Source: Verrucomicrobiia bacterium
GTDB lineage: Bacteria > Verrucomicrobiota > Verrucomicrobiia > Limisphaerales > DASXHY01
DNA length: 64,000 nt
Direction of reading: 5' to 3'
NCBI GenBank assembly: GCA_035765675.1
Contig: DASTXC010000082.1
Location: 9,851 to 73,850 of the forward strand
Shown: piece by piece, positions 9,818 through 63,937 of the stretch
Position numbering within the stretch: the stretch's first letter is position 1
Layout of the letters: each line of letters starts with the position of its first letter
The notes under the pieces: model-generated
The model's input: only the letters and a program-made list of their open reading frames with translations
The model's database searches: none
What the model was told of the DNA's origin: nothing
Program-made: the position numbers and the translations under genes

Positions 9818-9911
9818 GCGGTTCACAGTTGAAGAAGTTTCGCAATTGCAGTCGTTCCGAAAAAATCATGTTCGACCGCAACGACTCGCGCCTCGCAGGT
9901 TTGACGCACGA

Positions 9912-10502: not shown

Positions 10503-10509
10503 GCGCGCC

Positions 10510-29551: not shown

Positions 29552-32500
29552 ATGAAGAACCTTCTCAAATCAACCTGGAAAAGTTACGCGAGCCTGGCCG
29601 CATTGGCGGTCGCAGGTTTCGCCGGTCCGGCGTCAGCCGCGCTGACGGTCACCCTGGAAAATCAGTCCGGCACGGCGAACACCTGGCCGTTCACACCGGC
29701 GTGGACAGTGAATACAAACAACAGCCTGATCGCGGGGCTCGCGCCGAGCCAGGCATTGGGAGATTTCAGCAAGGAACTCGCGGGGCGAAGCGTCAATTCG
29801 CTGACGCTTAATACGAATCTGACCATCGGAATCGTTCAGCCCAGCACGTCCACGACGACGAATTATGTGACCTGCGGAAATGGCAGCGGCGCGGGATCGC
29901 TGGTGGTTTACACATTGCCGGCTTCTTCGTTTGGTTATGATCTTACGAACATTACCGTTTACGGGGGGTGGGCGAACAGTGGCCGCGACGCGCAGGCTTA
30001 CACGGTTTTATATTCCACCGTCGGAAGTCCGAATGACTTCAAGTATCTGACTTCCGTATCTTACAATCCCACCGTCCCGGCAAACACGCCGAGCTCCAAT
30101 CGTGAAATCATTCGCGACAACGCGGGTGGAGTCATCGCCGCAAATGTGGCGTCCGTGAAATTCGATTTCGATGTGCCGGCAGTTGAAAATGGCTTCGTAG
30201 GATACGCCGCAATCACGGTGGGAGGAACAGCTTCGACGGGTGCCGAAGGTCCGGGCATTTCGATTTCAACCGCCAACCAGAACAGCCCCGCGGCCTTCAC
30301 GCCGAACTGGGTTCTGGAAACGCCCAATCTGATTGCGGGGCTGGCGCCGACTGCGGCGGTCGGCAATTTCAATCAGGAAGATTCGGCTGGAACTTCCGTG
30401 CTGACCGATGGGTTGATCGCTGAATCCGGAAATCATGCCGGGTTTGCAACGGCGGGCGCCACGGGCGGTGGTTCTCTGGTTTACACGCTGCCGGACGGTG
30501 AGAACGGAATCGATGTGACCAACGTCACGCTTTACACCGGCTGGGGCAACGCGGATCGCGATGGGCAATATTTCATTCTTTCCTACGCCACTGTTTCCGC
30601 GCCCACGGCTTACATTCCGATCACAACCGTTTTTTACAATCCCGCGGGAGTGACTGGATTTTCAGCGAACCGCGTTTCCATCAGCATGAACAACGGTCTG
30701 CCGCTGGCCACGGCGGTTTCCAAATTGAAATTTGATTTCGCCGGTCCGGTCGGAGCGAACCAGTTCGATCATGGTTATTCCGGCTATTCCGAAATCGTGG
30801 TGCAAGGAACGGAATCAAGCACGCCGCCCGCGCCGCCGTCTCCGTATCTCACCGAGGACACTTTGCCTTCTTTCATTGAAACTGTGGTCGGCGACCAGGT
30901 GGTCTTCACCGCCGCGTTCAGCAATGCTCCGCCCGCGAACGTTCAATGGGAGTTCATCAATGCTGAAGGCACGCTGACGAACGATGTTCCGGGAGCCACT
31001 TCCGAAACCCTGACACTCAATAACGTGCAGTTGTCAGATGCCGGAAGTTATCGCCTCAAAGCGGTGAATGCGACCAACAATGCGGCAGCACCTTCCTACA
31101 GTCTGGCCCGAACACTTTCTGTTAAACCGACTCCGACGGCAGTGAATGGAATCATTGTAGAAACCGCCAACCATCTGGGGGCTGGCGTAAATGGCATCAG
31201 CACGAACTTCTTTCCCACCTGGTCGGTCGCTACGGACGATGACCTGATCCTGGGCGCAACGCCGATTCCCGGCGATGGCGATTTCAGTGATCCCAGCACC
31301 GGGTTCGATCCGATTCTGCTGACGGATGGCACGTCTGGTTTTCTCAATTACTGGCCGAACGTGGGCGGCAGCGAAACGCTGGTGGTCATGGGCGGCAATC
31401 GCGGCAAGTCCGTCACCTACACACTTCCTCCGTCCACTTATGGTTATGACATTACGAACATTGTGGTTTACGGCGGCTGGGGCGACAGCGGTCGCGATCA
31501 GTCGAAATACCAGATTCTGTATTCCGTCGATGGCAGCATGCCATCGCTCCCGCTCATCACGGTCGATTACAACCCGAGCATTCCGTCCGGCCTGCAATCC
31601 GCGACTCGCACAACCTTGGTTCCCACCTCGCCGGGTGGACTGGTTCGCAATGTGACGGCGCTTACATTCAACTTCGATGTGAACGTAGAGAACGGTTACG
31701 TCGGTGTTTCGGAAATCGTGGTGGGCGGACAACTCTCGCCGCCGATGCCGACGCTGGCTCAGGACATTTCACCTCTCTCTGCGGAAACGGTGACTGGAGA
31801 TCACATCACGCTGACCGCGAGTTTCAATGGCGCGGACAGTTACCAATGGCAGAAAGACGGAACGAACATTTCGGATGGTCCGGATATTTCCGGCGCCACC
31901 ACGACGACGCTGACGTTGAGCCAGCTTCAGACTTCAGACACGGCCACCAACGGCGGCTATCGGCTCGCGGGAATCAATTCCTCGGGCACGGCCTACAGCA
32001 CGCCTTGCGCGCTGGTGGTAAAACCGCTGGCGCCTGCGACCAACAACGTCGTCATTTCCGCGGCGGGTCAGATTTATCTGCATCACGCGACCTACACGCC
32101 GGACTGGATTACGGACACCAGCGCGAACAACCTCATTTATCTGGCGCCTCCGACGGCGACGAATGGCGGCTTCGGACTGGAACCATTTGCGACCACGCGT
32201 GACATCAGTGGGTTTACAGATGGGGGTTCGCTCACGCTCAGTGTCACGGACGACGGCTCTCACAAAACCACCAGCGGAAATTATCTCACCGCGGGCAATG
32301 GCACCGGCCTGGATGGAACCCGTGATGAAAATGGAAATTATCTCCACAGTGACGCCGGACATTTCGTGGTTTATCAACTGCCGGCGTCCGCAAATGGTTA
32401 CGATCTGACCAATATCACCACCTATGGCGGATGGGCGGATGCGGGACGGGATCAACAGGCTTACGTTGTCCTCTATTCCACGGTGGCGAACCCGGGCAAT

Positions 32501-33496
32501 TTCCTGCCGCTCGGAACCGTGAGTTACAATCCCGTGAATCCCGCCGACGGAACCTCGGCAACGCGTGTGACACTGACGCCGGGTTCAGGATCGATGGCGC
32601 AGAACGTCGGGGCGGTGATGTTTGATTTCCGCAGTCCGGGAACGGAAAACGGCTTCGGGGGTTATGCCGAAATCACGATCAACGGCGTTCCTTCCGCCAC
32701 TCCAGAAACACCGCAGCCGGTGGTCACTGCCGAGAATCAGACCAACACGTTCACGTGGACGGTTGAAAGTCCGAACCTGATTGCGAATCGTTTGCCGGAC
32801 AGTTTCGGTCCGGGTCTCTTCACGAACGAAGGTTGTAACATTACCAACCTGACCGACGGCATCATTGGTTTCGGCGCGGGATTCGGAACGAGCCTCGGCG
32901 CGGGCGGCGCTGCGGTTCCATGGATCATCTTCAATTCTCCGAACGGTTGGGATCTGACGAACATCGTGGTTTACTCGCTCTGGCACGATTACGGTCGTGA
33001 CGGACAGTTCTACACCGTCAGCTATTCCACCTTGTCTGATCCTTCCGCGTTCGTGCCGTTGAGCACGGTTTACTTCAACCCGGATGTGCCGCAGGACGGA
33101 ACCGACAGCGGCAATCGCGTGGAGATCTCGCCCATCGTCGGTCAAACCAAACTGGCGAGCAATGTCGCGGCGGTGAAGTTTGATTTCACCATTCAAGGAA
33201 ATCAGGACTTCGCCTGGTCGGGCTATTCAGAAATCGTGTTGCAGGGCGTGAATCTGAATGCGGCCACGCCACCGCTGGTCGAAGGCGTTCGCGTGACCGG
33301 TGGAAATCTGGTGGTCACCGGCACCGGTTCGGCGAACTCGGACTACACGATTCTCACGACGACCAATCTGGCAAAGCCCTTGGCTGAGTGGACGATCAGC
33401 ACCACGGGTGTGATCGATGGCGCCGGCAGCTTCTCGAACGCGATTCCGGTTGACCCGGCCACGCCTGCGCGATTCTTCCGCGTGCGAACTCCTTGA
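29552..33496 (+). CDS. secreted non-catalytic repeat protein (protein A): 5 copies of the unassigned module, 2 Ig-like domains, C-terminal FFRV domain
   Basis: The ATG at 29552 gives the signal peptide [30 protein letters not shown]. The track ORF starts at a GTG at 29495. I recognised no catalytic motif. See the module features and findings. Confidence 0.85.
29642..30226 (+). repeat. unassigned beta-sandwich-like module, copy A1 (subtype Ia)
   Basis: [109 protein letters not shown]. Confidence 0.8.
30257..30808 (+). repeat. unassigned module, copy A2 (subtype II)
   Basis: [102 protein letters not shown]. Confidence 0.8.
31151..31729 (+). repeat. unassigned module, copy A3 (subtype Ib)
   Basis: [113 protein letters not shown]. 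Confidence 0.8.
32042..32686 (+). repeat. unassigned module, copy A4 (subtype Ia with a longer insert)
   Basis: [114 protein letters not shown]. Confidence 0.8.
32720..33247 (+). repeat. unassigned module, copy A5 (subtype II)
   Basis: [98 protein letters not shown]. Confidence 0.75.
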
Positions 33497-33626
33497 AGAA
33501 ATCGGGACGGGTTGTGATTGCCCCGGAACGGTTCGGGTTCCCGGGCAAATCCTCCAGCGAGTGAAATTTGAATCATCAAAACAGCTTGAGCGTCGCGATG
33601 TTTTTCGCGGGCGCGGATCGACTGAA

Positions 33627-34505
33627 ATGAACAAGAGAAATGCTTCCACGGGATTTCGAAAGCACCGGGTTCGCCGTGCTTTCACACTGATTGAATTGCT
33701 GGTCGTGATTGCGATCATTGCGATTCTGGCCGCGATGCTTCTGCCTGCATTATCCAAAGCCAAGCGGAAGGCTCTGGGCACTGCCTGCTCAAACAACATG
33801 AAGCAGCTCACGCTCGCGCTTCATCTTTATGCGCTTGATTACAAGGACAACATCGCGCCCAATCGCGGACAATCGTTGGATTCGTGGGTTCCCGGCGGCA
33901 CGTTCGGGTACGATGTCCGCGGCGGTTCCGGCGTGACCAACCTTGATAACATCCGCTCCGCTTTGCTTTTTCCCTATAACCAATCCCTGGGAATTTATCG
34001 GTGTCCGGGAGACAAAGATTCCGTGATTGATCCAACTCTCGGCAGTCTGGGCCAGCGCGTCAGGACTTACTCGATGAATGGAATGATGGGTGACAATCGA
34101 GGTTTCGGCGGCGGGAATGATCCCGTGCATGCGGACATTCCCGAACATCGCACGCTGAGTTCGGTTCAAAATCCGGGGCCGTCGGACGCGTCTCTGTTCG
34201 TAGATGAGCAAGGCAGTTCAAGCACGGTGGAATCGCAGACCAGCATCGATGACGGGTATTACGCCGTGAACTTCCAGGATCGCGGCCAGACCTGGCGGAA
34301 TGTGCCGGCGAGCCGTCACGGCAACTACGGCCAGTTTTCATTTGCGGATGGTCACGTCGGCAAAATGAAATGGGTGGAACCGAAAACCCAATTCCTCAAA
34401 GGATTGAAAGCAAGTTCTGGAAGGTTCAATGATCAGGATCTGCATCAAATCTGGAACTCGACTTATCCCGAAGGTGGTTATCCCGGCAAGCCGGGACCGT
34501 GGTGA
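33627..34505 (+). CDS. pseudopilin-like protein: prepilin-type N-terminal cleavage/methylation domain plus H-X9-DG motif
   Basis: The ATG at 33627 gives [49 protein letters not shown], a class III signal of the G/A-FTLIEL type. The C-terminal [16 protein letters not shown] is an exact H-X9-DG. The family is massively expanded in Planctomycetes and Verrucomicrobia. Confidence 0.9.
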
Positions 34506-34684
34506 GCCATGGTGAGGGCTGCACCCGTTTTTCACGCTGCAATTTTTTTTGCGAACGCAGTGCGACGCATCGGATTCATTCAATCGCCATTCCTGGATCG
34601 ATTGGCAGAACGCGAATCGTTTAATGCACAATCGATCCAAGTGACCCTCTGATGACTGCCGGACGGCGGTGTAAGAAGTAAAAC

Positions 34685-37600
34685 ATGAAGCAACGCCGAA
34701 TGGTCGAATGCAAAATTACGGGATATCTCGTCGCGTGTCTGGCCTTCGCTGGTTCCGCTTCGGCGGCGTTGTTGATCAACACCACGAATCAAACGGGCAA
34801 TCTTACTTTCCATCCGGATTGGAGTCTCGCATCGAACAGCCTGATCGCTGGGTTGGCACCGAGCAGTTCTTTCGGAAATTTCAGTCTGGAAGCACCGGGG
34901 CGCAATGCTCGGTCACTAACCTCGGGTGGCGATCTTTCAATTGAACAGATCCACGGCACCTCCGGCACGACGGCCAGCACCAATTACGTTACCTGCGGGA
35001 ACGGCAGTGGCGCGGGATCAGTGCTGGTTTATACACTGCCGGATTCAGCGAATGGTTACGATCTCACCAACATTACGGTTTACAGCGGCTGGCAGGACAA
35101 TGGCCGCGATGCGCAATCGTGGACTGTTTCGTATTCCACTGCCGCCAATCCGGAATTTTTTGTTCCGCTCACAACGGTTGCTTACAATCCTCCGGTTCCA
35201 AGCGGCGTTGCCACGGCCAATCGCGTAACACTGATTCATTCCGCAGGCGGACCTTTCGCGACCAACGTGGTTGCCTTGAAATTCGATTTCGCCGCGGCTT
35301 CCGTGGAAAACGGCTACACGGGTTATGGCGCAATCACGGTTCAGGGAATGCCTTCCACCAATGTCGTCATGCCGCTGCCCGTCATGGTTTCCGCCCAAAG
35401 CCAATCCGGCGGCGGATCATTCATTCCCGATTGGATTATTGAAACGGACAGTCTCGTCGCGGACCGGATGCCGAGTTTCACCGGTTCGGGCAATTTCGAA
35501 TTCGAACCGGAAACCGGCGGCTTGCCGATGTTGACGGACGGCGTGTTCGGACTCACCGGAACCACTGCGTCATTTGCCACCTGTGGCAACGATGCGGGAC
35601 GGTCGCTGGCGTATTATCTCGATGGCGCAACGCTGACAAACATTGTGGTTTACAGCGGCTGGGTGAATCCGGATCGCGACGGCCAGTTCTACAACGTTTA
35701 TTATTCCACGCTCTCCGCGCCGAACTCGTTCCTTCCGCTGGCCAGCGTGAACTACAATCCCGTCGCTTCCGGAAACTCGGCGGCTCGCGTTTCCATTGCC
35801 ACCGCGAACGGTACGCCGCTCGCGACAAATGTGGCGTTCGTGAAATTCGATTTCACACCACAGAACCATTCGGTGGATCACGGCTATTCGGGTTACGCGG
35901 AGATCATTCTGCAAGGGTTCGGCGGCGGCTCCGCATCGCAGCCTCCGATCAAAATGCAAACGGATTTTCCCGCGAGCACTTCCGACAGCGCCGATGCCGT
36001 GCTGGTGTTCAATGAGATCATGTATCATCCCGCCGCCAATGAAGCCGGAATGGAATGGATCGAGTTGTACAATCAGCTCGCGGTCGATATCGATGTTTCG
36101 AACTGGCGGATTGCCGGCGACACGGAGTTTACGTTTCCTGCGGGGACCCGAATTGCCGGACGCAGCTTTGTCGTTGTCGCGCGAGATCCGGCGCAGCTTC
36201 AGGCAGCAACGGGTTTGAGCTCGAATGTATTCGGACCTTTCGTCAGTCCGTTGGACAACAAAGGCGGCACTCTCCAATTATTCAACAATGCCGGACGATT
36301 GATGGACGCGGTCGAGTTCGGAACCGAAGGTGAATGGCCGGTTACACCCGATGGCGCGGGGCCTTCGCTGGCCAAGCTGGATCGGGATTGGGGATCCGCC
36401 GCCGCAGCGAACTGGCGCGCGAGTGTTCAAAACGGAGGCACGCCGGGATTTGAAAATTTTCCCACCGCGCCAACGCCGGCGACATTGATTTTCAATGAAG
36501 TTTCCGGTGCGACCAATTCGATGTGGGTTGAACTCAGAAATCGCGGAACGAATTCAATTTCGTTGAGCGATTGCATTCTTCACCACGATGGTGAAACCAA
36601 CACCGATTACATTTTTCCTCCCAATGTCAGTCTCGACGCCGGTGCGTTTTTTGTGCTGTCGAATGATGTGCTCGGTTTTCAGTCTCCGGCTTCGGGTGAA
36701 AAGCTGTTTCTGTTTGGCCCCGATCATTCAACGGCCTACGACGGTTTCGTGTTGAAAAAAACTCCTCGTGCGCGCGCGACGGATGGAACAGAACGCTGGT
36801 TCGTTCCTTCGCCAACCACGCCCGGCACAACGAACCGTTTCGCATTTCAAACCGATATCGTGATCAACGAAATCATGTGTCATCACCAGGCGTTCGCGCC
36901 GGCGGACACCAACGCGATTCCGATTGAGAATCCGGAAGAATGGATTGAACTCTACAATCGCGGGACGAATGTCATCGACCTCACCGGATGGGAAATTGCG
37001 GGCGGAATCGACTTCGCGTTTCCCGTGGGCACAACGCTCGCGCCGGACGCTTACCTGGTGATTGCGAACGACGCGGCCAATTTATCGGCGCTTTATCCAA
37101 GCGCGAATGTGATCGGAAATTTCAACGGACGACTCGGTGGCGATGATCAAATCACGTTAAAGGATGCTTCAGGCAATCCGGCGGATGAAGTGCATTATTA
37201 CACATCCGGACATTGGCCGGAATTTGCCGGCGGCGGAGGTTCCAGTCTGGAATTGCGTGATCCGAACGCGGACAACTCAAAAGCCGAAGCCTGGGCCGCG
37301 AGTGATGAATCCGGAAAATCCTCCTGGCAAACTTACACGTATCAAATGATTGCGCAGCCGAGCGCCACTCCCGCGCCGGACAATCAATGGCGCGATTTCG
37401 TGCTCGGCCTTTTAGGCGATGGCGAATGCTGGGTGGACGATATTCGTGTGATGCAATCGCCCGGTCAGAATCCCACCGATTTGATTTCCAATGGCGATTT
37501 CGAAAATGGACTTAACGGCTGGCGCGTGTTGGGCAATCACGGTCGCAGTCGTGTGGAATCCGATCCCAATAATCCCGGCAATTATGTTCTGCATGTCGTC

Positions 37601-40483
37601 GCGTCAGGTCCGCAGGAGCACATGCACAATCACATTGAAGCGACGTTGGTGGACGGATGCGCGGTGACGAATGGTTTGCTTTACGAAGTTTCTTTTCGCG
37701 CGCGCTGGATTGGCGGAAACAACCGGCTGAACACGCGCCTTTATTTCAATCGCGTGGCACGAACAACGCCGTTGCTCACACCGCGATTGAACGGCACGCC
37801 CGGCGCGGTCAATTCGCAACGCATTTCCAATCTCGGCCCCACCTTCGCGCGATTTCAACATCAGCCGATCGTTCCGCGAGTGAATGAGCCAGTGACTGTT
37901 TTCGTTCAGGCAAGCGATCCGCAGGGCGTAAGTGATTGCACGGTCTGGTGGTCGGTGAATGGCGGTGCGTGGTCCAGCGCGGCGATGTCACTCACGAACG
38001 GCGTCTATTCAGCAACGATTCCCGGATTCGCTGCGAACAGCCTGGTGCAGTTTTATGTCAGCGCGACGGACACTCTGGGCGCGATTGCGACTTTTCCCGC
38101 GCGCGGTCCGGATTCCGGAGCGTTCTATCGTGTTGATGATGGCTTCGCCAGTTTCTCACCTGTTCACAGCCTTCGCATCCTGATGTCGCCAGCAAATGTT
38201 GCGTTACAGAACGCCGTCACGAACCTGATGAGCAACGAGAATCTGCCCTGCACGCTGATCTACGATGAGCGTCAGGTTTATTACGACATTGCCGTTCGCC
38301 TCAAGAGCAGTGAACGCGGACGCGTGGTGGCGGCGCGCATCGGTTTTCATCTGGAATTCAATCCGGATAATTTGTTCCGCGGCGTGCATCCCGTGATGCT
38401 CGTGGATCGATCCGCGGGTGATTTCAGCCTGCCCGGGGAAGAGATGCTGGTGAAACACATGTTGTCCCATGCGGGGTTGCCGAGTGTGAATTCCGATTTC
38501 ACCCGAATCATTGCTCCGCAGAGTGCGCAGAACGGGATGGCAATACTCTCGCCGCGGTACGAAGACAATTTTATCGCGACAGCAATTCCGGATGGAGATG
38601 AAGGCACGTTCTACGAATTCGAGTTGACGTATTTTCCAAAGACCGCCGACGAACACGGTTACAAATTGCCGGAGCCAGACAATGTTCAAGGAGTCGAGAT
38701 CTCCGATCTTGGCGATGACAAGGAACGCTATCGCTACAACTTCATGATCAAGAATCATCGTGCGGCTGATGATTACTCGGCCCTCATGCGCTTTGCCAAA
38801 AGCTGGAGTCTCAACGGAACGGCATTGGACGAGCAGACGGAACTCACCATGGACATGGATGAATGGCTGAACGTCTATGCGATGATCGCGCTGAGTGGTG
38901 TCACCGACATGTACACGTTTGGAGGAAATCATAACCTGATGATGTATGTCCGTCCCGGCGATGGACGGATTTTGTATTTCCCATGGGACATGGATTATGC
39001 GTTTACGCGCGGCGTCACGGATCCGCTGATTGGAGATCAGAACCTCGGAAAAATTGCGAATCGTCCGGCAAATCTGCGCCGCTTCTACGCGCATGTGTTG
39101 AATCATATCAGTAGCACCTTCAACACGGACTATCTGGCGGACTGGGTGAGTCACTATGGGGGACTGTACGGTCAGGATTATTCCTCTGACCTGAGTTACA
39201 TCGCCAACCGCGCGGCATACGCGTTGGGAATGATTGAAGACGCAACTGGCGATGTTCCCTTCACGCTCAACGAAACCAATGTTCTGAACGTTACGAGCAA
39301 TCGGGTGACGTTAAGCGGCACCGCGCCGGTGAACATCACTTCCATTCTGGTGAATGGAAAAACTTTTCCGGTGACGTGGGCTTCGCTTTCCAACTGGATC
39401 GTTCAGGCGACCCTGAACGCGCCGACCAATCATTTGGAGATTCAAGGATTCGACCTGAATGGAAATCTGATCACGAATCTTTCGACGGTCGTGATCTTTG
39501 ACGGTTTCGTGCCCGAGTCCATCACCATTTCCATAAATGAATGGATGGCGGATAACAGTTACACGCTTACGAATCCAGTGGGCGGAAAATTCGATGACTG
39601 GTTCGAATTGTATAACTACGGCACGAACACTGTGGATCTCGGTGGAAATTATTTGACCGGGGATCTGACTGACAAAACCAAATTCCAGATTCCCGACACG
39701 CATCAATACCTTGTTCCGCCGGGAGGATTTTTTGTGGTTTGGGCGGACAATGCCGATGAAGCCAATGCGATTGGTCGTCCTGATCTGCATGTGAATTTCA
39801 AACTGAGCAAGTCGGGCGAGGCCATCGGTTTGTTTACAGCGGATGGCACTTTGATCGACGCGGTCAGTTTTGGTCCGCAAGTCACTGATGTTTCGCAAGG
39901 ACGATTCCCGGATGGCGCGTCGGAAATTTTCTCAATGCCCACGCCCACGCCGGAGACGAACAACATTTTTCCGAACACCGCGCCGGTGTTGGCAGCAATC
40001 GGCGACAAATACATTCACGCTGGCCAGGTGGTGCAATTTCTCGCGCAAGCCAGCGATGCGGAAAATGCCTGGCAGACATTGACGTTCAGCCTGAGCAACG
40101 CGCCTTCCGGCGCAGTCATTCAACCGTTGACCGGCGCATTTTCATGGATGACATCCAGCGCCACGGCACCGGGCACAAATTTCATAACCATCCGCGTAAC
40201 CGACAACGGAACGCCGCCGCTGAGCGATGCAAAAACATTTGCGGTAATCGTTGCGGTATTGCCGCGATTGACGGAAGCCAGCGCGAACGGCGATGGAAGC
40301 GTTCAGTTTTCTTTCCACACGCTGCCCGCTCAGGATTACCAGCTTCAATATAAAAACCGTCTGACTGATGCCGTCTGGATTCCGCTGGGAGAAATTATTT
40401 CCGGCACGGGATCGGATGTGATCGTTCACGACAATGCGGCTGAAAATTCACAGCGGTTTTATCGACTGATGGTTTTGCCATGA
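34685..40483 (+). CDS. giant secreted LTD / CotH-family protein (CotH-2, protein B) with 2 N-terminal copies of the unassigned module
   Basis: 1932 aa. Signal ..YLVACLAFAGSASAA. Modules B1 and B2. Four LTD-like segments (VFNEIMYHP..MEWIELYNQLAVDIDVSNWRIAGD; IFNEVSG..MWVELRNRGTNSISLSDC; VINEIMCHH..EEWIELYNRGTNVIDLTGWEIAGG; INEWMADN..DDWFELYNYGTNTVDLGGNYLTGD). CotH core (..FHLEFNPDNLFRGVHPVMLVDRS..GGNHNLMMYVRPGDGRILYFPWDMDYAF). Cadherin- or Ig-like segment (NTAPVLAAIGDKYIHAGQVVQF..). C-terminal domain ending QRFYRLMVLP. Confidence 0.9.
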   Translation: MKQRRMVECKITGYLVACLAFAGSASAALLINTTNQTGNLTFHPDWSLASNSLIAGLAPSSSFGNFSLEAPGRNARSLTSGGDLSIEQIHGTSGTTASTNYVTCGNGSGAGSVLVYTLPDSANGYDLTNITVYSGWQDNGRDAQSWTVSYSTAANPEFFVPLTTVAYNPPVPSGVATANRVTLIHSAGGPFATNVVALKFDFAAASVENGYTGYGAITVQGMPSTNVVMPLPVMVSAQSQSGGGSFIPDWIIETDSLVADRMPSFTGSGNFEFEPETGGLPMLTDGVFGLTGTTASFATCGNDAGRSLAYYLDGATLTNIVVYSGWVNPDRDGQFYNVYYSTLSAPNSFLPLASVNYNPVASGNSAARVSIATANGTPLATNVAFVKFDFTPQNHSVDHGYSGYAEIILQGFGGGSASQPPIKMQTDFPASTSDSADAVLVFNEIMYHPAANEAGMEWIELYNQLAVDIDVSNWRIAGDTEFTFPAGTRIAGRSFVVVARDPAQLQAATGLSSNVFGPFVSPLDNKGGTLQLFNNAGRLMDAVEFGTEGEWPVTPDGAGPSLAKLDRDWGSAAAANWRASVQNGGTPGFENFPTAPTPATLIFNEVSGATNSMWVELRNRGTNSISLSDCILHHDGETNTDYIFPPNVSLDAGAFFVLSNDVLGFQSPASGEKLFLFGPDHSTAYDGFVLKKTPRARATDGTERWFVPSPTTPGTTNRFAFQTDIVINEIMCHHQAFAPADTNAIPIENPEEWIELYNRGTNVIDLTGWEIAGGIDFAFPVGTTLAPDAYLVIANDAANLSALYPSANVIGNFNGRLGGDDQITLKDASGNPADEVHYYTSGHWPEFAGGGGSSLELRDPNADNSKAEAWAASDESGKSSWQTYTYQMIAQPSATPAPDNQWRDFVLGLLGDGECWVDDIRVMQSPGQNPTDLISNGDFENGLNGWRVLGNHGRSRVESDPNNPGNYVLHVVASGPQEHMHNHIEATLVDGCAVTNGLLYEVSFRARWIGGNNRLNTRLYFNRVARTTPLLTPRLNGTPGAVNSQRISNLGPTFARFQHQPIVPRVNEPVTVFVQASDPQGVSDCTVWWSVNGGAWSSAAMSLTNGVYSATIPGFAANSLVQFYVSATDTLGAIATFPARGPDSGAFYRVDDGFASFSPVHSLRILMSPANVALQNAVTNLMSNENLPCTLIYDERQVYYDIAVRLKSSERGRVVAARIGFHLEFNPDNLFRGVHPVMLVDRSAGDFSLPGEEMLVKHMLSHAGLPSVNSDFTRIIAPQSAQNGMAILSPRYEDNFIATAIPDGDEGTFYEFELTYFPKTADEHGYKLPEPDNVQGVEISDLGDDKERYRYNFMIKNHRAADDYSALMRFAKSWSLNGTALDEQTELTMDMDEWLNVYAMIALSGVTDMYTFGGNHNLMMYVRPGDGRILYFPWDMDYAFTRGVTDPLIGDQNLGKIANRPANLRRFYAHVLNHISSTFNTDYLADWVSHYGGLYGQDYSSDLSYIANRAAYALGMIEDATGDVPFTLNETNVLNVTSNRVTLSGTAPVNITSILVNGKTFPVTWASLSNWIVQATLNAPTNHLEIQGFDLNGNLITNLSTVVIFDGFVPESITISINEWMADNSYTLTNPVGGKFDDWFELYNYGTNTVDLGGNYLTGDLTDKTKFQIPDTHQYLVPPGGFFVVWADNADEANAIGRPDLHVNFKLSKSGEAIGLFTADGTLIDAVSFGPQVTDVSQGRFPDGASEIFSMPTPTPETNNIFPNTAPVLAAIGDKYIHAGQVVQFLAQASDAENAWQTLTFSLSNAPSGAVIQPLTGAFSWMTSSATAPGTNFITIRVTDNGTPPLSDAKTFAVIVAVLPRLTEASANGDGSVQFSFHTLPAQDYQLQYKNRLTDAVWIPLGEIISGTGSDVIVHDNAAENSQRFYRLMVLP
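34769..35347 (+). repeat. unassigned module, copy B1 (subtype Ia)
   Basis: [120 protein letters not shown]. Confidence 0.8.
35381..35917 (+). repeat. unassigned module, copy B2 (subtype II)
   Basis: [113 protein letters not shown]. Confidence 0.8.
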
Positions 40484-40519
40484 ACACACGGGCAATGAAT
40501 TTCTAATGCGACAAACTCA

Positions 40520-44053: not shown

Positions 44054-44063
44054 GTTGAAACCG

Positions 44064-52500: not shown

Positions 52501-53115
52501 ACCACGGCCGGTTTGAATGATGGCAGCGCGGCCAACAACAACAATCGAACGTATTACGGCAATTCCGATCCATCAGGCGGAAATCTGCCGGTGACGATCA
52601 CTTTCAATCTGAACACCAACAGTGCGAGCGGATACGACATCACGCGCATTCAGTCGATCACAGGTTGGTCGGATTCGAATCTGGCGAATCTGCGTTATGA
52701 GCTTCTGTTGTCGTTCAAAGGCGGACCGTTTGTCAGTTATGGAGAATTCAGCAGCGCAACCAATTCGACGGCGTTCAACAATGGAAACAACGCAATCCTG
52801 CAAACTTTGACCAGCGACACGGGTTCGATCGCGCGGGGCGTTACTGCCGTGCGATTTATTTTCTCGAATCCTGGCGGTTCGCAAGGCGGTTCGGGAGGCA
52901 CGTTGATTCGTGAGCTTCAGGTTTTCGGAACGCCGGTGGTCGGGTTGTCTTTTCAAAAGGCGGGCGACAATCTTCTACAATTAAGCTGGCCGCAGGGGAT
53001 TCTGCTGGAGGCGACGAATATTACTGGCCCGTGGATCACCAATGCCAGCGCGACTTCGCCTTACACGAACGACCTTGATGCGCCGGAGAAATATTTCCGC
53101 GTGCAGATTCAGTGA
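49531..53115 (+). CDS. secreted protein F: beta-sandwich + SGNH esterase, second SGNH domain, Ig-like domain, two module copies, C-terminal YFRV domain
   Basis: The ATG at 49531 overlaps the upstream stop (ATGA). An internal ATG at 49609 gives a better-placed signal peptide (MITGTHVIRPSAVRVFALFVGFILTATQLSA). SGNH-1 at ~50125-50709 (NIGDSIMSGD..LINLGENG..DGQHPTAEGH). SGNH-2 at ~50728-51408 (CAMGDSITAGF..LLLQIGINDIG..INHPNNIAYDRMA). Confidence 0.85.
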   Translation: MKQHTITNSFGYSIVIGKVERTSLCGMITGTHVIRPSAVRVFALFVGFILTATQLSADVIPVTDSNVLNGLTRNNWVLQNDFISTSVGGASLQVAFDGTDQVTLQLDDAHLSGITASRCPIIAWSVNGGPIQTHQLTTAESSIALCSDVPNPEIDLFVKGMSPFENRYSGDVPPNSVKITGFIVDSGGSTREIELPQKVWLNIGDSIMSGDAAAYATGQGRPADDSWAASDDARASYGYLLAKHFGYREARLAFGGYDWGGGLAGVPSLTTLIDQKTSTISRLKNGLLDPVPEVVLINLGENGAPSSTDVTQALTRLRSRVNPRTKIIVMIPVAGTARVQITQAFSSYTNATPDANAFLVDLGSLNFSTADGQHPTAEGHQTIYQAALPVLESIVNPAPFRICAMGDSITAGFTDNPQWTVPFEFGYRSGLYTRLTNSGMSFQFVGSSPQPWDGIDGTVTNTPLVDLRESDQDHHEGYTGKNTAFFLANVANWIGVDRPHILLLQIGINDIGKGSTGEPTGAELNLSNIIATVVSNSPQTHVIVAQITPYSSYTEAIVRYNNYIKDTLVPYFAGLGKRVTTVNQYTNLCFPGTTTIDASLFANGINHPNNIAYDRMAQTWFEGIQALNLPPSPPTQLPIVVANTQPATAKVFVGEGISFNAAFESDQPMVYQWHRIQGGVTNAIPGATNSILTLMNLQTTDNGSYFLQASNALGIASSASSSLTVSDLPAAADNIITAIAEQTGRGIGVFTPGWIFTTNHSLIAGKAPSSAIGNFSLEAPGRNVNLLTSDDDGALSVIVSTSGATSSTNYVTCGNGSGAGSSVTYTLTGSTYGYDLTNVTVSGGWADNGRDQQAYTVFYSTVMDPQNFLPLTTVNFNPEVGSGRQSATRVAILPATGTLATNVAMVKFDFSSPASEHGYCGYNKIIIEGSAGAPVTIVTNPPLPVMIESSQFGPSSSAFDGAIASNLIRAGQSSLAGVVVSHGPSISSLFTTAGLNDGSAANNNNRTYYGNSDPSGGNLPVTITFNLNTNSASGYDITRIQSITGWSDSNLANLRYELLLSFKGGPFVSYGEFSSATNSTAFNNGNNAILQTLTSDTGSIARGVTAVRFIFSNPGGSQGGSGGTLIRELQVFGTPVVGLSFQKAGDNLLQLSWPQGILLEATNITGPWITNASATSPYTNDLDAPEKYFRVQIQ
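51730..52317 (+). repeat. unassigned module, copy F1 (subtype Ia)
   Basis: [121 protein letters not shown]. Confidence 0.8.
52363..52929 (+). repeat. divergent discoidin-like module, copy F2 (subtype III)
   Basis: ..LNDGSAANNNNRTYYG..LPVTITFNLNTNSASGYDITRIQSITGWSDSNLANLRYELLLSFKGGPFVSYGEF..GVTAVRFIFSNPGG..GTLIRELQVFG. The strand order matches the other modules, and the ending is typical of F5/8 type C domains. Confidence 0.6.
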
Positions 53116-53139
53116 TTCCTCAGAGCTCGATTATTTCCG

Positions 53140-56100: not shown

Positions 56101-57750
56101 GTGCTGTTCAACAATGGAAGCGTCGCAGATTCAGCGCCGGTTGACTTTTTCATCATCAGTCCGAACCCAAATCTCAGTTTTGAACTGCCGGCAATTGGAT
56201 CGGGAAATCATGTTTATGGACCTGAAGGGGGAACGTGGATTTTCAACAGCAACAGCGGCGACAATGGTTCGGGAATCGTTGCGAATGGCAGCGCGTTTGG
56301 AAATCCAAACGCGCCGAACGGCACGCAGACGGCGTTTGTTCAAAGCCATGGAAAAATCACTCAGACACTGACCGGCTTTGCGCCCGGCACGAATTACACC
56401 CTCACGTATTCCGCGGCGCAGCGCGGGGGAGGGAATCAACACGGTGGCGAATCCTGGAATGTGATGGTTGATGACGCGGTGATTAAATCCAACACTCCGG
56501 GTCCGACGAGTTACACCACTTACACCGCCAACTTCACCGCGTCGCTGGCGACTCACACTTTGTCGTTTGTCGGAACCGATCTCGCCGGTGGCGACAACAC
56601 GGTGTTCATCGACAACGTGCAGTTCAATCCACCGCTGACGCCGATTCTGATTCCCGAGTTGCGAACGAACACGCTGCCGGTGACGGCGGCGGAGGTTGTC
56701 GGCGGGGAAGTGAAATTTATGGCCGCTTTCAACAGCGCCAATCCCATTCAATATCAATGGCAGAAAATCGTGGACGGTGTTGCGACCGATATCGTGGACG
56801 CGACGAATACCGTTTTGACGCTGACAGATTTGCAACTCAGCGATGCGGGATTGTATCGGCTCCAGGCTTCCAACGCGTTGGGTATTGCCGTGAGTGCTGC
56901 AAGTTCGCTTACAGTTTCCGGCGTGCCAGCGCCAGTTAACAATGTGATCACTTCGTTTGCCGCACAGACGGGGCTTGGAAGCGTGGCTACCAACTTCACT
57001 CCGACCTGGACTCTGGGCTCGGGAAGTTTGATTCAGGGGAAAACGCCGAGCCAGGTGGGCGGCGGCAATTTCACTCGAAGCACCGCTTTATTGACTGATG
57101 GCAGTTTTGGTTGGTTTACCTATTGGCCAAATGTCGGGCTGAGTTCGACTGAAGTGACCTGCGGCACGAGTGCCGGTCAATCAGTCACTTACGCACTCGG
57201 CAATTCCAGCAGCGGCTACAGTATTTCCAACATTGTGATTTATGGAGGCTGGGGTGATGCCGGACGCGATCAACAGGCGTTCACGGTTTCGTATTCCACG
57301 ATCAGTGCGCCGGATCTTTTCGTCCCGCTTGCGAATGTAAATTTCAATCCGGAAAATCCCAGGGCTGTTCAGTCGGCGACGCGTTCAAGTTTGAGATCAT
57401 CGACTGGCGCTCCGCTCGCCACGAATGTTGCGAAGTTGAAATTTGATTTCACCACGCCCGAACCGGAGAATGGCTACTGTGGTTACTCGGAAATTTCCGT
57501 TTTAGGAACGCCGACGCCGATGATTGCGACGACTCCGACCCATATCGCCGTGCAATTCAACAAAGACGTTTTGAATCTAAGCTGGCCCAGCGATCACATC
57601 GGCTGGCGATTGCAGGTGCAGACGAATGATTGGAATTCGGGACTTGGAACAAACTGGGTGGATGTCATCGGATCGACGGCGACGAATCAGATGAATGTTC
57701 CAATCAACACCGTGAACGGCAGCGTCTTCTTCCGATTGGTCTATCCATAA
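53140..57750 (+). CDS. secreted protein G: metzincin-type zinc metalloprotease, PPC-like, cadherin-like, FN3, 2x DUF642/CBM-like, Ig-like domains, unassigned module, C-terminal FFRL domain
   Basis: Signal MKNKKILFAVCLCLSVGIGVSWL. Zinc site HEVGHTLGLSHDG (54211-54243) with the downstream Met-turn candidate WAPIMGVGY. DTDAFQFTTSGGIVTLTAKP (pre-peptidase C-terminal-like). FN3 (ISYNVKRSTLHNGPYTVIA..GVRYYYVVSAVNTNGES). Two ~153-aa repeats at 55411-55869 and 56170-56631. Confidence 0.85.
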   Translation: MKNKKILFAVCLCLSVGIGVSWLRQSKSRSAEHSAAVTAGTNATAIMTNAFANTAPVPSAIGNTQGVVSSEMNPSINPYAAGLREPGKAKREWDERFIESFRSSNPGNAVRFELTGGVVAKGVVKIIQRDGANVSFVSGELSEPEIGKFFFLTPPAGGKAGKAVGVVEFPGSQIAYRVEPTGSGGEPELWERRMDEVLCLSMPEISDPVMAAAATNETLNIPPLRPDLVPDYVPSYNSNIVSLQSYPGSSAVLLLDFFGGYTVHWGGVEYARPPVSNETIKDIWKRVAEDYMPFNINVTTDIKVYQAAPAASRQRCCYTTTPVTAAGVAYFGSWNWGNDAVCWSVYYVGKNAAEVGSHEVGHTLGLSHDGRTTPVEEYFGGHGSGDTGWAPIMGVGYYQPVAQWSKGEYASANQLQDDLNIITSNNNNVGYRADDTGNTLATARYLEIYSNNTASAEGVIERTADTDAFQFTTSGGIVTLTAKPVGDWADLAVSATLANAADTVIASNNPQSTLSASITTNLAAGSYTFRVTGAGRNNPLNNGFSSYASLGYYSVTGSVAGARLPTRLSVVEHAPNNSEVGAVPAINPNSSPLLYTITSGNSGGTFSVDDSGVVRVADNTLLDYSRLATNTMYAVQFEVFMNITNVNNPALTELNRRVVIAVEKFYPVVPMLLTATAGTGLRINLNWMGAQDAISYNVKRSTLHNGPYTVIASPTDTSYSDLGLTDGVRYYYVVSAVNTNGESADSSEANALAQSVAGYGFETPSIGSGNHQYNPSGGFWTFNGASGNGSGIVANGSAFSNPNAPEGSQAAFVQSYGTISQTLSGFTPGVNYTITYSAAQRSGQDQHGGESWNVVVDGNVIKSNNPGPTSYTTYNATFIATATTHALAFVGTDLAGGDNTVFIDNVRFDPPLQPAPATVALTQPANGAGFAETAPIYLMATVTTNGNQIDGVEFYLDNITRLGEITTAPFKFAMANVTPGKHTVFARVLFNNGSVADSAPVDFFIISPNPNLSFELPAIGSGNHVYGPEGGTWIFNSNSGDNGSGIVANGSAFGNPNAPNGTQTAFVQSHGKITQTLTGFAPGTNYTLTYSAAQRGGGNQHGGESWNVMVDDAVIKSNTPGPTSYTTYTANFTASLATHTLSFVGTDLAGGDNTVFIDNVQFNPPLTPILIPELRTNTLPVTAAEVVGGEVKFMAAFNSANPIQYQWQKIVDGVATDIVDATNTVLTLTDLQLSDAGLYRLQASNALGIAVSAASSLTVSGVPAPVNNVITSFAAQTGLGSVATNFTPTWTLGSGSLIQGKTPSQVGGGNFTRSTALLTDGSFGWFTYWPNVGLSSTEVTCGTSAGQSVTYALGNSSSGYSISNIVIYGGWGDAGRDQQAFTVSYSTISAPDLFVPLANVNFNPENPRAVQSATRSSLRSSTGAPLATNVAKLKFDFTTPEPENGYCGYSEISVLGTPTPMIATTPTHIAVQFNKDVLNLSWPSDHIGWRLQVQTNDWNSGLGTNWVDVIGSTATNQMNVPINTVNGSVFFRLVYP
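56941..57507 (+). repeat. unassigned module, copy G (subtype Ib)
   Basis: [129 protein letters not shown]. Confidence 0.8.
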
Positions 57751-57755
57751 ATTTT

Positions 57756-60341: not shown

Positions 60342-60364
60342 ATCGATTTTTTATTCAAATCAAA

Positions 60365-63300: not shown

Positions 63301-63937
63301 GCAATTGCGAATGGCGAGCGGAAAAACGTTGCACGCAGTGGCGACGAATTTGCCCGCGCCACAGGAAATCCCGGGCGCCTGGGATTTACATTTCCCGCCG
63401 AACTGGGGCGCGCCGAAATTGCTTCGTCTGAACAAGCTGATTTCGTGGAGCGATCATGCGGAATCGGGCGTGCGTTATTTCTCGGGAACTGCGACTTACG
63501 AAAAGGAAATTGAGATTCCTGCCGAACGCTTGAGCTCAGGTCGCGAACTCTGGCTGGACCTGGGCGATGTGAAGAACTTCGCGGAAGTTTCATTGAATGG
63601 AAAAGACCTGGGCGTGCTTTGGAAACCGCCGTTTCAAGTGAACGTTTCTGCCGCAGCGAAACCGGGCGCGAATCGTTTGGTGGTGAAGGTTACGAACCTC
63701 TGGCCGAATCGATTGATTGGCGACGAGCAGTTGCCGCCGGATTGCGAATGGAACGGTTCTGAACTCAAGGCCTGGCCGCAATGGCTGTTGGACGGCAAGC
63801 CGAGTCCGACTGGACGCCTGACATTTACGACGTGGCATCACTGGTCGAAAAATTCGCCATTGCTGGAATCCGGCCTGCTCGGTCCGGTCATGCTGAGAAC
63901 CGCCCAAGTAATCGTTCCTATTCAGGCGAGCCATTGA
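60365..63937 (+). CDS. large glycoside hydrolase, GH106-like, paralog 3 (carries two copies of the small YG..DVT domain)
   Basis: Signal MTKLSRCLFAFTALCAALASATA. FSNPPDSAKPQTWWHWMNGNITKAGITADLEAMKEIGLGGATIVNVD.. C-terminal YFSGTATYEKEIEIP..WLDLGDVKNFAEVSLNGKDLGVLWKPPFQVNVSAAAKPGANRLVVKVTNLWPNRLIGD. Confidence 0.7.
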   Translation: MTKLSRCLFAFTALCAALASATAAPLEDGFSNPPDSAKPQTWWHWMNGNITKAGITADLEAMKEIGLGGATIVNVDCEIPPGDVPFMSAEWRECFKFAVQEADRLGLKLSVENCAGWSSSGGPWNTPANAMQQLTSSETHCHGPAVFDAVLPQPKMRLDFYRDIAVLAFKSPGPTENIPGDASSAKGKLEIQRAVYGTDGGGWADVKDRLLKMIERGQESVIVSNSEMGGDPAQGMVKQLRLEFTLNGKPSVLTADENEALIFPVSERQLAAARLIEKTSVNRTFFDPPPAKGKSTEPIPREGVLDLTAKLSDDGHLRWDVPAGDWTVLRIGYTPIGRNNHPAPVEGTGLECDKMSKEALDAHWEGFMQKVLNDIGPLAGKALDTSLIDSYEVGGQDWTPKFREEFQKRRGYDPLKFLPTFTRRVIESPEVTERFLWDMRRTVADLFADNYFRHFAELCREHGLLNAIEPYTGPFESMQSGAPADVVMGEFWSGSSGHSSIKLAASIAHVYGKSVVAAESFTAAPGPHTGRWLEDPYSLKPLGDLMFCQGLNRYIFHRYAMQPWTNRWPGMTMGQWGFHFERTETWWDQGKAWIDYISRCQFLLQQGRAVADVAYFTGESAPVEMRIGHPEIPAGYDYDAVNADVLLHGATVKNGRVTLASGANYAVLVLPQNDINMTPPVLQRVRELVRAGATVVGPRPQHSPSLAGFPECDVQVNELAQELWGKSNGTTVRENSVGKGRIVWGQSLTNVFAAQRLPRDFEFPNADRETRLAYTHRVTQDADIYFVSNQRRQFDSADCTFRVAGKIPELWHPETGVIETAAIWKSENGRTTVTLNFEPAESVFVIFRKSAADADHVVAAHGQFVRETSNSPKLKIQRAIYVATDGAGQMDVTAKVAQRLAAGDAIIADNDLAGRDPAEFHTKELRVDYTLDGKAGHVVAVEKSKLRLPTMTTVGSIPKWEVVTTAEAPTVKTWRNGDVQLRMASGKTLHAVATNLPAPQEIPGAWDLHFPPNWGAPKLLRLNKLISWSDHAESGVRYFSGTATYEKEIEIPAERLSSGRELWLDLGDVKNFAEVSLNGKDLGVLWKPPFQVNVSAAAKPGANRLVVKVTNLWPNRLIGDEQLPPDCEWNGSELKAWPQWLLDGKPSPTGRLTFTTWHHWSKNSPLLESGLLGPVMLRTAQVIVPIQASH

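Follow-up and report, generated by a model that had tools for sequence, protein, structure and literature searches.

How a bacterium takes hold of a complex glycan without the SusC/SusD pair is an open question for the Verrucomicrobiota, raised in the outlook section of one study (PMC8857213), and these bacteria play a major part, both in soils and in waters, in breaking down recalcitrant glycans rich in rhamnose and fucose. The question is posed again by a locus in 64,000 nucleotides (nt) of DNA, here called the window, from a Verrucomicrobiia bacterium of the Limisphaerales (GenBank assembly GCA_035765675.1, contig DASTXC010000082.1, positions 9,851 to 73,850). A preliminary description, made from the sequence alone, had singled out ten genes of the window as a candidate undescribed system for degrading a surface glycan or glycoprotein. 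Recomputation returned exactly the coordinates and gaps given there for these ten co-directional genes (A to I plus a pseudopilin gene, all on the + strand), but the boundary had been drawn too narrowly: a glycoside hydrolase family 78 (GH78) gene and a divergent histidine kinase/response regulator pair upstream of A were missed. The locus spans at least 23885-63937, with the GH78 gene, the divergent two-component genes and the ten-gene array. From its family assignments and its relatives, we consider it fairly probable that the locus encodes a system of the polysaccharide utilization locus (PUL) type, lacking SusC/SusD and directed at a rhamnose-containing, probably acetylated glycan or glycoconjugate, in a Limisphaerales/Pedosphaeraceae-like host from soil or fresh water.

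The genes of the locus are as follows (lengths in amino acids, aa; related loci bear L numbers):

23885..26836, + strand: GH78 alpha-L-rhamnosidase, 983 aa, signal peptide (Bac_rhamnosid6H E=4e-124)
27063..27794, - strand: response regulator of the NarL/LuxR type (Response_reg E=5e-24, GerE E=3e-16)
27852..29276, - strand: histidine kinase, 474 aa, divergent from A (Pfam, hydropathy)
28647..29108, - strand: CBM67-like periplasmic sensor, kinase residues 57-210 (PDB sequence, profile, hhalign)
29552-33496, + strand: A, secreted, non-catalytic, 1314 aa (orthologues of 44-55% identity in L003, L004, L084, L085 and L086)
33627-34505, + strand: pseudopilin-like protein, 292 aa, with prepilin leader, DUF1559 and H-X9-DG motif (N_methyl E=1.3e-8)
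34685-40483, + strand: B, giant protein, 1932 aa (orthologues in L003, 62%, and L004, 61%)
40520-44053, + strand: C, GH106 family, 1177 aa, signal peptide only (PF17132 E=3e-210)
44064-47471, + strand: D, GH106 family, 1135 aa, signal peptide only (PF17132 E=8e-181)
47468-49534, + strand: E, 688 aa, no Pfam match (61% orthologues in L001 and L086)
49531-53115, + strand: F, 1194 aa (Lipase_GDSL E=3e-13, Lipase_GDSL_2 E=2e-11)
53140-57750, + strand: G, 1536 aa, zinc motif HEVGHTLGLSHD at residue 358 (DUF642 E=3e-14, Big_7 E=4e-10)
57756-60341, + strand: H, conserved, uncharacterised, 861 aa, signal peptide only (Bac_rhamnosid6H E=0.007)
60365-63937, + strand: I, third GH106-family enzyme, 1190 aa, signal peptide only (PF17132 E=3e-213)

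The first line of evidence is enzymatic. Three GH106-like enzymes had been proposed, and C, D and I indeed matched PF17132 (Glyco_hydro_106) over its full length, with 701, 604 and 711 bits, respectively, against a cut-off of 29, and with ~2-739 of the 743 model positions covered. D and I were 37-45% identical to C over the full length, and I was 37-41% identical to C and D. C, which alone was run against the PDB, matched the GH106 structures 6q2f (E=2e-160) and 5mqm/5mwk (E~1e-117). By family model and solved structures, C, D and I are assigned to GH106. Orthologues of C (73%) were found in L001, L004 and L005, and orthologues of D (70-72%) in L001 and L004. The GH78 enzyme matched all five models of its Pfam set (Ig_Rha78A_N, Bac_rhamnosid_N, Bac_rhamnosid, Bac_rhamnosid6H and Bac_rhamnosid_C), and its gene belongs to the locus; orthologues of 67-69% identity lie in the related loci L085 and L086. 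A domain of ~90 aa is common to the GH78 enzyme (residues ~150-237), I (178-264 and 874-951) and C (864-986), with 29-39% identity, and gave a spurious-looking Pfam match to DnaJ-like_C11_C.

H had been called a six-hairpin glycosidase-like protein. All that was recovered in favour of this call was the weak Bac_rhamnosid6H match given above and an hhalign comparison with the GH78 catalytic region (E=5e-4 at 31% probability), so that H is possibly, on these profile matches, a six-hairpin glycosidase. Its family has more than 1745 homologues of 60-73% identity, all annotated as 'hypothetical', and homologues of H lie beside GH106 in L005 (71%) and beside GH92 and GH78 in L083 (10001-12631).

The second line of evidence comes from the two-component genes. 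The kinase is laid out as a transmembrane segment, a periplasmic domain of ~190 residues, a second transmembrane segment, HisKA_3 and HATPase. Its periplasmic sensor was not recognised by Pfam. As a single sequence, the sensor matched the tandem-domain lectins 6t0q, 6t1d and 6kbj (E=7e-22), which we take to be the Pleurotus ostreatus lectin, and the N-domain of the rhamnosidase RhaB (2okx, E=2.9e-5). As a profile, it matched residues 139-293 of 3w5m (E=4e-22), labelled 'Putative rhamnosidase' by the PDB tool and presumably the founding enzyme of carbohydrate-binding module (CBM) family 67, from Streptomyces avermitilis. The sensor also aligned with an insert in GH78 enzymes (99.7% probability, hhalign against a GH78 alignment), and its orthologues share an invariant T-x-D-N-E-F motif. 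By these sequence and profile comparisons the kinase sensor is a CBM67-like lectin domain. CBM67 is a Ca-dependent L-rhamnose-binding module. The P. ostreatus lectin (POL) is CBM67-like and binds L-rhamnose among other sugars (PMC11186620). The likeness of the sensor to CBM67 suggests that the kinase responds to rhamnose or rhamnosides. Kinase orthologues (38-57% identity) were found in L001, L003, L004, L084, L085 and L086, and response regulator orthologues (52-74%) in L003, L084, L085 and L086; both genes belong to the locus.

The third line of evidence is conservation. The best relatives were found in metagenome-assembled genomes of Limisphaerales, 'subdivision 3' and Pedosphaera, and they retain the following gene orders (identities to the window in brackets; HK, histidine kinase; RR, response regulator):

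L001: C (73%), D (70%), HK, RR, E (61%)
L003: A (53%), B (62%), HK, RR
L004: A, pseudopilin (52%), GH78 fused to module and C-terminal domain, B (61%), D (72%), C (73%), HK
L005: B, C, a gene left unassigned, H (71%)
L084, L085 and L086: A, pseudopilin, GH78 fused to module; HK and RR; extra GH78, GH106 or GH92

In L085, rhaA, the gene for L-rhamnose isomerase (RhaA), directly follows the regulator, and it was seen in this locus only. Other exo-glycosidases adjoin the related loci, namely GH92, GH3, GH31 and GH38. When loci were sampled by the shared module described below (n=6), a pseudopilin lay within 10 kb in 6/6, GH78 was present in 5/6 and a kinase-regulator pair in 4/6. When the sensor was the query, orthologues of at least 45% identity turned up at 32 Verrucomicrobial loci, and counts were taken on the 28 of at least 10 kb. 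All 28 had the kinase core and a response regulator; 24 had GH78 or GH106, 16 had the module and 11 had the pseudopilin. The synteny is mosaic but consistent, and the enzyme payload varies. Because the same partners recur in module- and sensor-sampled loci, the recurrent core consists of the CBM67-sensor two-component system, rhamnosidases, module-tagged proteins and a pair formed by an A-like protein and a pseudopilin. The earlier view of a coherent glycan-degrading locus centred on rhamnosidases and kept in relatives is thus upheld by these mosaic versions of the gene set. Many public metagenome-assembled contigs with such Verrucomicrobia-type genes bear the name Bifidobacterium, Bifidobacteriaceae, Dongiaceae, Acidoferrum or Bacillota (L002, L003, L006, L012, L020, L039 and others), labels that are probably binning or taxonomy errors in the source records.

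What joins the non-glycosidase proteins of the array is a module of ~185 aa. All-against-all BLAST and a hidden Markov model (HMM) built from the window detected 11 copies, five in A, two each in B and F and one each in E and G, with i-Evalues from 1e-37 to 7e-84 and pairwise identities of 35-52%, a likeness far beyond chance. The HMM found none in C, D, H, I or the upstream GH78 enzyme, and the remark that the plain glycosidases lack the module thus held. The copies, all on the + strand, are:

29684..30253, + strand: module A1 (i-Evalue 1.4e-75)
30290..30835, + strand: module A2 (i-Evalue 4.5e-64)
31202..31753, + strand: module A3 (i-Evalue 6.4e-69)
32087..32713, + strand: module A4 (i-Evalue 3.9e-57)
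32738..33274, + strand: module A5 (i-Evalue 1.4e-61)
34802..35374, + strand: module B1 (i-Evalue 6.9e-77)
35414..35944, + strand: module B2 (i-Evalue 1.2e-65)
48749..49315, + strand: module E1, the copy modelled (i-Evalue 7.1e-84)
51772..52344, + strand: module F1 (i-Evalue 2.3e-79)
52423..52953, + strand: module F2, divergent and partial (i-Evalue 1.4e-37, HMM positions 51-183)
56989..57537, + strand: module G1 (i-Evalue 3.5e-77)

None of the 11 copies matched a Pfam model at E<=10, and profile searches found no match in NCBIfam or among PDB sequences. Since a profile search of 1.84 billion representative proteins returned 1465 carriers at E<=1e-3 (210 at E<=1e-30), the module is a real but small, unnamed family without a Pfam model. 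An AlphaFold (AF2) model of E residues 415-688, computed from a 131-sequence alignment, had a predicted local distance difference test (pLDDT) score of 92.7. With the module of this model, Foldseek returned 7rga, the F-type lectin 3cqo, neuropilin b1b2 (2qqi), several CBM32s and SUN domains; 7rga is, we presume, the nanoCLAMP scaffold derived from a Clostridium perfringens CBM32. As modelled, the module is a galactose-binding-domain-like beta-sandwich of the CBM32, F-lectin and discoidin type, the similarity being weak but consistent.

The other domains of 36 long module carriers include GH78 (3), GH43, GH76, GxGYxYP, GDSL and SASA esterases, DUF642 and an HpiC1-like CBM-type domain, and on many proteins outside multi-module contexts the module occurs singly. 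In 1.5 Mb of Verrucomicrobial DNA sampled with B, it was found only in loci with homologues of this cluster's proteins. Because the module is fused to glycoside hydrolase and esterase domains, and because relatives of the E head carry CBM13 or F5/8-C domains at the same position, it is most likely, judging from these architectures and the predicted fold, a common carbohydrate-binding module that would hold its carriers on one substrate.

In 43 of 54 long carriers the module stands directly before the C-terminal domain described next, whose start lies at most 11 residues from the last module; 'module plus C-terminal domain' is therefore a common cassette. In three relatives a GH78 domain is fused to this cassette (L004, 6455-10801; L085, 12191-16591; L086, 6383-10762), these genes being broken by frameshifts in long-read assemblies. 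Unlike those of L004, L085 and L086, the GH78 enzyme of the window has neither the module nor the C-terminal domain.

The C-terminal domain, of ~55-70 residues, has [FY][FY]R-x(2-4) at its end and was modelled as a beta-sandwich of the fn3/Ig type. The proposal that the five giants share the module and this domain stood for the module in all five; the complete C-terminal domain is present in A, B, E and G, and F has a shorter variant ending KYFRVQIQ.

33287..33493, + strand: C-terminal domain of A, ending ...RFFRVRTP
40274..40480, + strand: C-terminal domain of B, ending ...RFYRLMVLP
49325..49531, + strand: C-terminal domain of E, ending ...KFYRIIGFQ
57541..57747, + strand: C-terminal domain of G, ending ...VFFRLVYP

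An HMM of this domain found 100 open reading frames (ORFs) in 1.54 Mb of Verrucomicrobial loci, and in 93 of them it ended within 5 residues of the stop codon. Of these ORFs, 64 encode LTD-CotH proteins that lack the module, and 21 encode proteins unrelated to anything in the window. An LTD-CotH giant is encoded in the window itself, unlinked and 24 kb upstream of the array (1762-5688, - strand, 1308 aa): it ends in the same domain (...ARFYRVVVAP), has no module, and carries a full CotH match (E=3e-39) with CHB_HEX_C, Fn3_assoc and Ig domains. The C-terminal domain was rejected as a locus-specific feature, as it caps many unrelated Verrucomicrobial secreted proteins; it is a generic, lineage-wide terminal tag and no mark of the locus, and therefore does not define the system. 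The preliminary description had reasoned that a module and a C-terminal domain ubiquitous among secreted proteins would undo the idea of a system: the C-terminal domain proved to be that widespread, and the module did not. Neither the Por_Secre_tail (PF18962) of the type IX secretion system (T9SS) nor PEP-CTERM (PF07589) matched A, B, E, F or G.

The genes for A and the pseudopilin lead the array. A consists of a signal peptide, two modules, an Ig domain, a module, a further Ig domain, two modules and the C-terminal domain, with no catalytic domain by Pfam, as expected of the non-catalytic five-module protein reported before. The pseudopilin call likewise stood, on the N_methyl match together with SBP_bac_10/DUF1559 (E=5.5e-7) and an H-X9-DG motif visible near the C-terminus. 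Scores of 34.5 bits for PF07963 (cut-off 21.2) and 30.5 for TIGR02532 (cut-off 16.3) place the protein in the type IV pilin/type II secretion system pseudopilin superfamily. An assignment to GspG was rejected (TIGR01710, 38.5 bits against a cut-off of 88.85, over the N-terminal 66 positions only). Orthologues of the pseudopilin (52-62% identity) lie directly downstream of an A-like gene in L004, L084, L085 and L086. The presence of a pseudopilin within 10 kb in all module-sampled loci is to be set against a background of 14 such genes in 1.54 Mb. The 11 sensor-sampled loci with a pseudopilin all had the module too, and in 9-10 of them the pseudopilin ORF began no more than ~120 nt downstream of an ORF that has the module and lies on the same strand. 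The A-like protein and the DUF1559 pseudopilin are a conserved gene pair. DUF1559-type pseudopilin genes were also seen within ~2 kb of module-less LTD-CotH giants (L008, L009, L017, L026 and L082), which hints that pseudopilins are linked more widely to proteins with the C-terminal domain.

The remaining giants differ in what they attach to the module. B consists of a signal peptide, two modules, four LTD domains, a CBM4_9-like domain (CBM_4_9 below the Pfam cut-off), a CotH-like domain and the C-terminal domain. Its description as an LTD-CotH giant was secure for LTD (x4, E=6e-61) and less so for CotH: PF08757 scored 33.1 bits (cut-off 23.8) in a partial match to positions 53-220 of 322. LTD-CotH relatives of B were found at 342 loci in genome contigs, and only the closest (L003, L004, L005, L006, L010 and L064) have the N-terminal modules.

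E consists of a signal peptide, an uncharacterised head of ~280 aa, an Ig domain, the module and the C-terminal domain; a single-sequence AlphaFold model of the whole protein was unusable (pLDDT 32.5). The head had been described as TIM-barrel-like, a call that no Pfam or PDB match bore out. The head has 111 homologues, in which RicinB/CBM13, F5/8-C, a dockerin or a T9SS tail is fused where E has its module, and its invariant motifs are D-x3-DDE, LQCYDGG and GGFxW. These motifs resemble those of GH18, a likeness that no search supported and that we take as a lead and not as a claim. The E head is probably, from its conserved motifs and fusions, an undescribed carbohydrate-active enzyme family. 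The family of the head (47618-48460) spans Verrucomicrobiota, Armatimonadota, Myxococcota and Bacteroidota.

F consists of a signal peptide, two SGNH/GDSL carbohydrate-esterase-like domains, an Ig domain, two modules and the short C-terminal variant. The two SGNH esterase domains claimed for it were recovered by two GDSL models (Lipase_GDSL, 50.6 bits, cut-off 23.6; Lipase_GDSL_2, 45.2 bits, cut-off 32.9) and two GDS motifs, at residues 204 and 406; the second domain matched the esterase 2vpt (E=5.5e-11). G consists of a signal or anchor, a metzincin-type metalloprotease domain, fn3, two DUF642 domains, Big_7, an Ig domain, the module and the C-terminal domain. For G, a metzincin with CBM-like repeats had been proposed. 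The HEXXHXXGXXH zinc motif, present as HEVGHTLGLSHD, and the two DUF642 domains agree with this; the Reprolysin models stayed below their cut-offs (Reprolysin_3, 21.4 bits against 22.4; Reprolysin_5, 18.5 against 27), PDB metzincins matched weakly (E~0.1), and no Met-turn was located.

The gaps between the ten ORFs, in order, are 130, 179, 36, 10, -4, -4, 24, 5 and 23 nt. Seven of the nine junctions thus have a gap of at most 36 nt or a 4-nt overlap, and the longer gaps flank the pseudopilin gene (130 nt to A, 179 nt to B). The start codons of E and F are uncertain: for E the sole upstream start is ATG 47468, with ~43 residues preceding the hydrophobic signal segment, and for F there is an in-frame alternative ATG at 49609, with which the signal peptide would look more typical and the E-F gap would be +74. 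In the gap between the pseudopilin gene and B there is a perfect 11-nt inverted repeat (34594-34639; arms TGGATCGATTG and CAATCGATCCA, 24-nt spacer), after which B starts ~45 nt further on. The segment around it (34580-34684, 105 nt) had a folding z of -4.1, and 0/200 shuffles folded as well; the repeat is possibly an operator or an RNA element/hairpin. The whole gap between A and the pseudopilin gene folded no better than shuffles (z=-0.8). Just past the stop of A there is a G+C-rich hairpin (33518-33548; arms TTGCCCCGGAAC and GTTCCCGGGCAA, 7-nt loop) without a U-run. The G+C content of the window is even (0.52-0.59), and scans of the window or the locus found no Rfam family, tRNA or tandem repeat.

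As the preliminary description had stated, Pfam detected no SusC/SusD and no dockerin or cohesin: neither SusC nor SusD was found among the genes of 23885-63937, and none of the ten proteins gave a cohesin or dockerin match at E<=0.01. A Bacteroidota-type PUL was rejected on the first ground and a cellulosome on the second. The sole TonB-dependent receptor of the window (7649-9817) lies ~14 kb upstream of the locus, in another gene group and without SusD. That group, on the + strand at 7649-14137, also encodes a YfiR/HmsC-like protein, a CHASE8-HAMP-PAS histidine kinase and a hybrid kinase/receiver, and appears unrelated to the glycan locus.

Taken together, these results suggest the following working model for the SusC/SusD-less PUL-type system. 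Rhamnose or rhamno-oligosaccharides would be caught in the periplasm by the CBM67-like domain of the kinase, ligand binding being inferred here and homology shown, and the kinase would signal to the NarL/LuxR-type regulator, so that the array is switched on. In an outer tier, A, B, E, F and G would be exported and would work on the polymer outside the cell. The modules would hold these proteins on a common glycan, A acting as a five-fold multivalent non-catalytic binder; F may take off acetyl or other esters, G may cleave a protein component, and the E head would be an uncharacterised, probably hydrolytic domain. No role is assignable to the CotH-like part of B. The generic C-terminal domain might mediate export or retention, and the pseudopilin probably helps to export, tether or present A. 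In an inner tier, the three GH106 enzymes, GH78 and H, which have a signal peptide only, would trim oligosaccharides in the periplasm and free L-rhamnose. By analogy, this two-tier split would parallel the division between surface and periplasm of Bacteroides PULs. The substrate might be a pectic rhamnogalacturonan, an arabinogalactan-protein or an algal or bacterial rhamnan, and the data do not discriminate among these candidates.

A bolder extension of the model is that A, the DUF1559 pseudopilin and the CBM67-sensor system are the signature of a distinct Verrucomicrobial glycan-capture apparatus, the counterpart of SusC/SusD-marked PULs, in which the pilin-like protein would export or display a multivalent binder of a new CBM family and the [FY][FY]R-ended sandwich would be the sorting tag of an uncharacterised surface-display pathway. 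We put this forward tentatively and regard it as doubtful. If true, it would give the huge DUF1559 family its first concrete functional context.

Several observations weigh against the PUL-type interpretation. The fold matches of the module were weak (Foldseek E of 1e-4 to 1e-2, TM of 0.3-0.5), and hhalign comparisons of the module with an F5/8-C profile (0.1% probability) and with the profile of the CBM67-like sensor were negative; because of the former, the likeness of the module to F5/8-C is one of fold only. Two of the putative enzymes lack a confirmed enzymatic fold: the E head had no match in Pfam or PDB searches, and H had none in NCBIfam or PDB searches beyond the marginal six-hairpin signal. 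A function of the C-terminal domain in export or retention would be pure inference. At least three transcription units are possible, given the gaps of 130 and 179 nt and the strong hairpin that precedes B, and consensus promoter and terminator scans stayed at or below the shuffled expectation, with nothing informative in the intergenic gaps. B-type LTD-CotH proteins lie mostly outside such loci. A pure polysaccharide substrate leaves the metzincin and the LTD-CotH protein unexplained, and the window contains no sugar transporter and no rhamnose-catabolic gene.

The last two points would be accounted for if the target were not a nutrient. The proteins might then act on the rhamnose-rich envelope of other microbes or algae, in predation or epibiosis, or remodel the cell's own exopolysaccharide or glycoprotein layer, with the protease, the esterases and the CotH protein acting on a surface glycoprotein. 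The grouping of metzincin, esterases and rhamnosidases in one array fits such a role, as does an adhesin-like giant with domains of the Ig and LTD types. However, RhaA is contiguous with the locus in L085, which points to catabolism, the exo-glycosidases that adjoin related loci (GH92, GH3, GH31 and GH38) are of the foraging type, and Verrucomicrobia rich in GH78 and GH106 are described as polysaccharide consumers (PMC5615132, PMC8857213). We therefore regard a non-nutrient target as unlikely.

Could the module instead bind protein, with A as the scaffold of a cellulosome-like assembly of B, E, F and G, anchored by the pseudopilin or the C-terminal domain? A has several modules and no catalytic domain, every exported enzyme has at least one module copy, and the A-pseudopilin pair is conserved; moreover, the module is unrelated in sequence to all named CBMs, and the SUN domain, a protein-binding beta-sandwich, is among its fold matches. 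Such an assembly is nevertheless quite improbable. The same module stands on the would-be scaffold and on the enzymes, whereas known assemblies pair cohesin with dockerin, neither of which was found here. The best fold matches of the module are lectins and CBM32, the E head of other lineages has true CBMs (CBM13, F5/8-C) at the module position, and the module often occurs singly, outside multi-module contexts.

That there is no system at all, and that a chance run of co-directional secreted-protein genes shares common mobile domains of the lineage, would agree with the generic C-terminal domain, the abundance of LTD-CotH giants (342 loci, mostly outside such clusters) and the variable gene content of relatives, but it is highly improbable given the rarity of the module (1465 of 1.84 billion representatives), its confinement in the 1.5 Mb of B-sampled DNA to loci with homologues of this cluster's proteins, the recurrence of the A-like protein, pseudopilin, kinase and regulator, GH78/GH106 and E head in independently sampled genomes, and the seven short or overlapping junctions out of nine.

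Returning to the SusC/SusD-less PUL-type system, we conclude that its new elements are: i) the orphan module family; ii) the pair of A-like protein and DUF1559 pseudopilin; iii) the CBM67-like sensor kinase; and iv) two unnamed candidate enzyme families, the E head and H. A literature search limited to open-access text found no description of these elements or of this locus type, of the C-terminal domain, of a function for DUF1559, or of LTD-CotH proteins in Verrucomicrobia. The module is a candidate new CBM family with ~1465 representative sequences, a rhamnose-lectin-type kinase sensor would directly name the inducer, and the module, the A/pseudopilin pair, the sensor kinase, the E head and H are possible marker genes for such loci in metagenomes.

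How do these elements compare with known systems? Domains of the CBM32, F5/8 type C and F-type lectin kinds have the fold predicted for the module and are likewise appended in tandem to glycoside hydrolases and esterases; they measure ~140 aa, whereas the module is larger (~185 aa) and has no sequence or profile similarity to them. CBM67 occurs in enzymes and lectins, whereas the homologous domain here is the sensor of a two-component histidine kinase.

The clostridial cellulosome, some components of which carry CotH and LTD (PMC6083626), resembles the locus in combining a non-catalytic multi-module protein with enzymes that share a non-catalytic module, and in placing an LTD-CotH protein with a polysaccharide-degrading set. 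It differs in its complementary cohesin/dockerin pair; here there is one module type, with a lectin-like fold, in a Gram-negative host. The mucin utilization loci (MULs) MUL1 and MUL2 of Akkermansia include a type IV pilin-like protein and PilM (PMC13174399), so that there, too, Verrucomicrobial glycan foraging is genetically tied to pilin-like proteins. By description the two are set apart, with an Amuc_1102-type pilin and mucin in Akkermansia, and a DUF1559/H-X9-DG pseudopilin and a probable rhamnoglycan here.

With the Sus-like PULs of Bacteroidota the locus, as modelled, shares the combination of a sensor/regulator, non-catalytic surface glycan binders, surface endo-enzymes and periplasmic exo-glycosidases. 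Unlike them, it has no SusC/SusD, no lipoprotein signals and no hybrid two-component or extracytoplasmic function (ECF)/anti-sigma regulator, and surface attachment, if any, would proceed via a different C-terminal domain.

The closest counterparts are PUL-like clusters of carbohydrate-active enzymes in Verrucomicrobiota, which PMC8857213 and PMC5615132 describe as lacking SusC/SusD and as rich in GH78, GH106, GH29 and GH95; to call the present system undescribed, as the preliminary description did, was on this account too strong. In those clusters, too, rhamnosidases occur with esterases and peptidases, and rhamnose- or fucose-polysaccharide targets are inferred. The locus described here differs from those clusters in having no sulfatases, and in three elements that do not appear in the parts of the two papers considered: the orphan module, the pair of multi-module protein and DUF1559 pseudopilin, and the CBM67-like sensor of the kinase.

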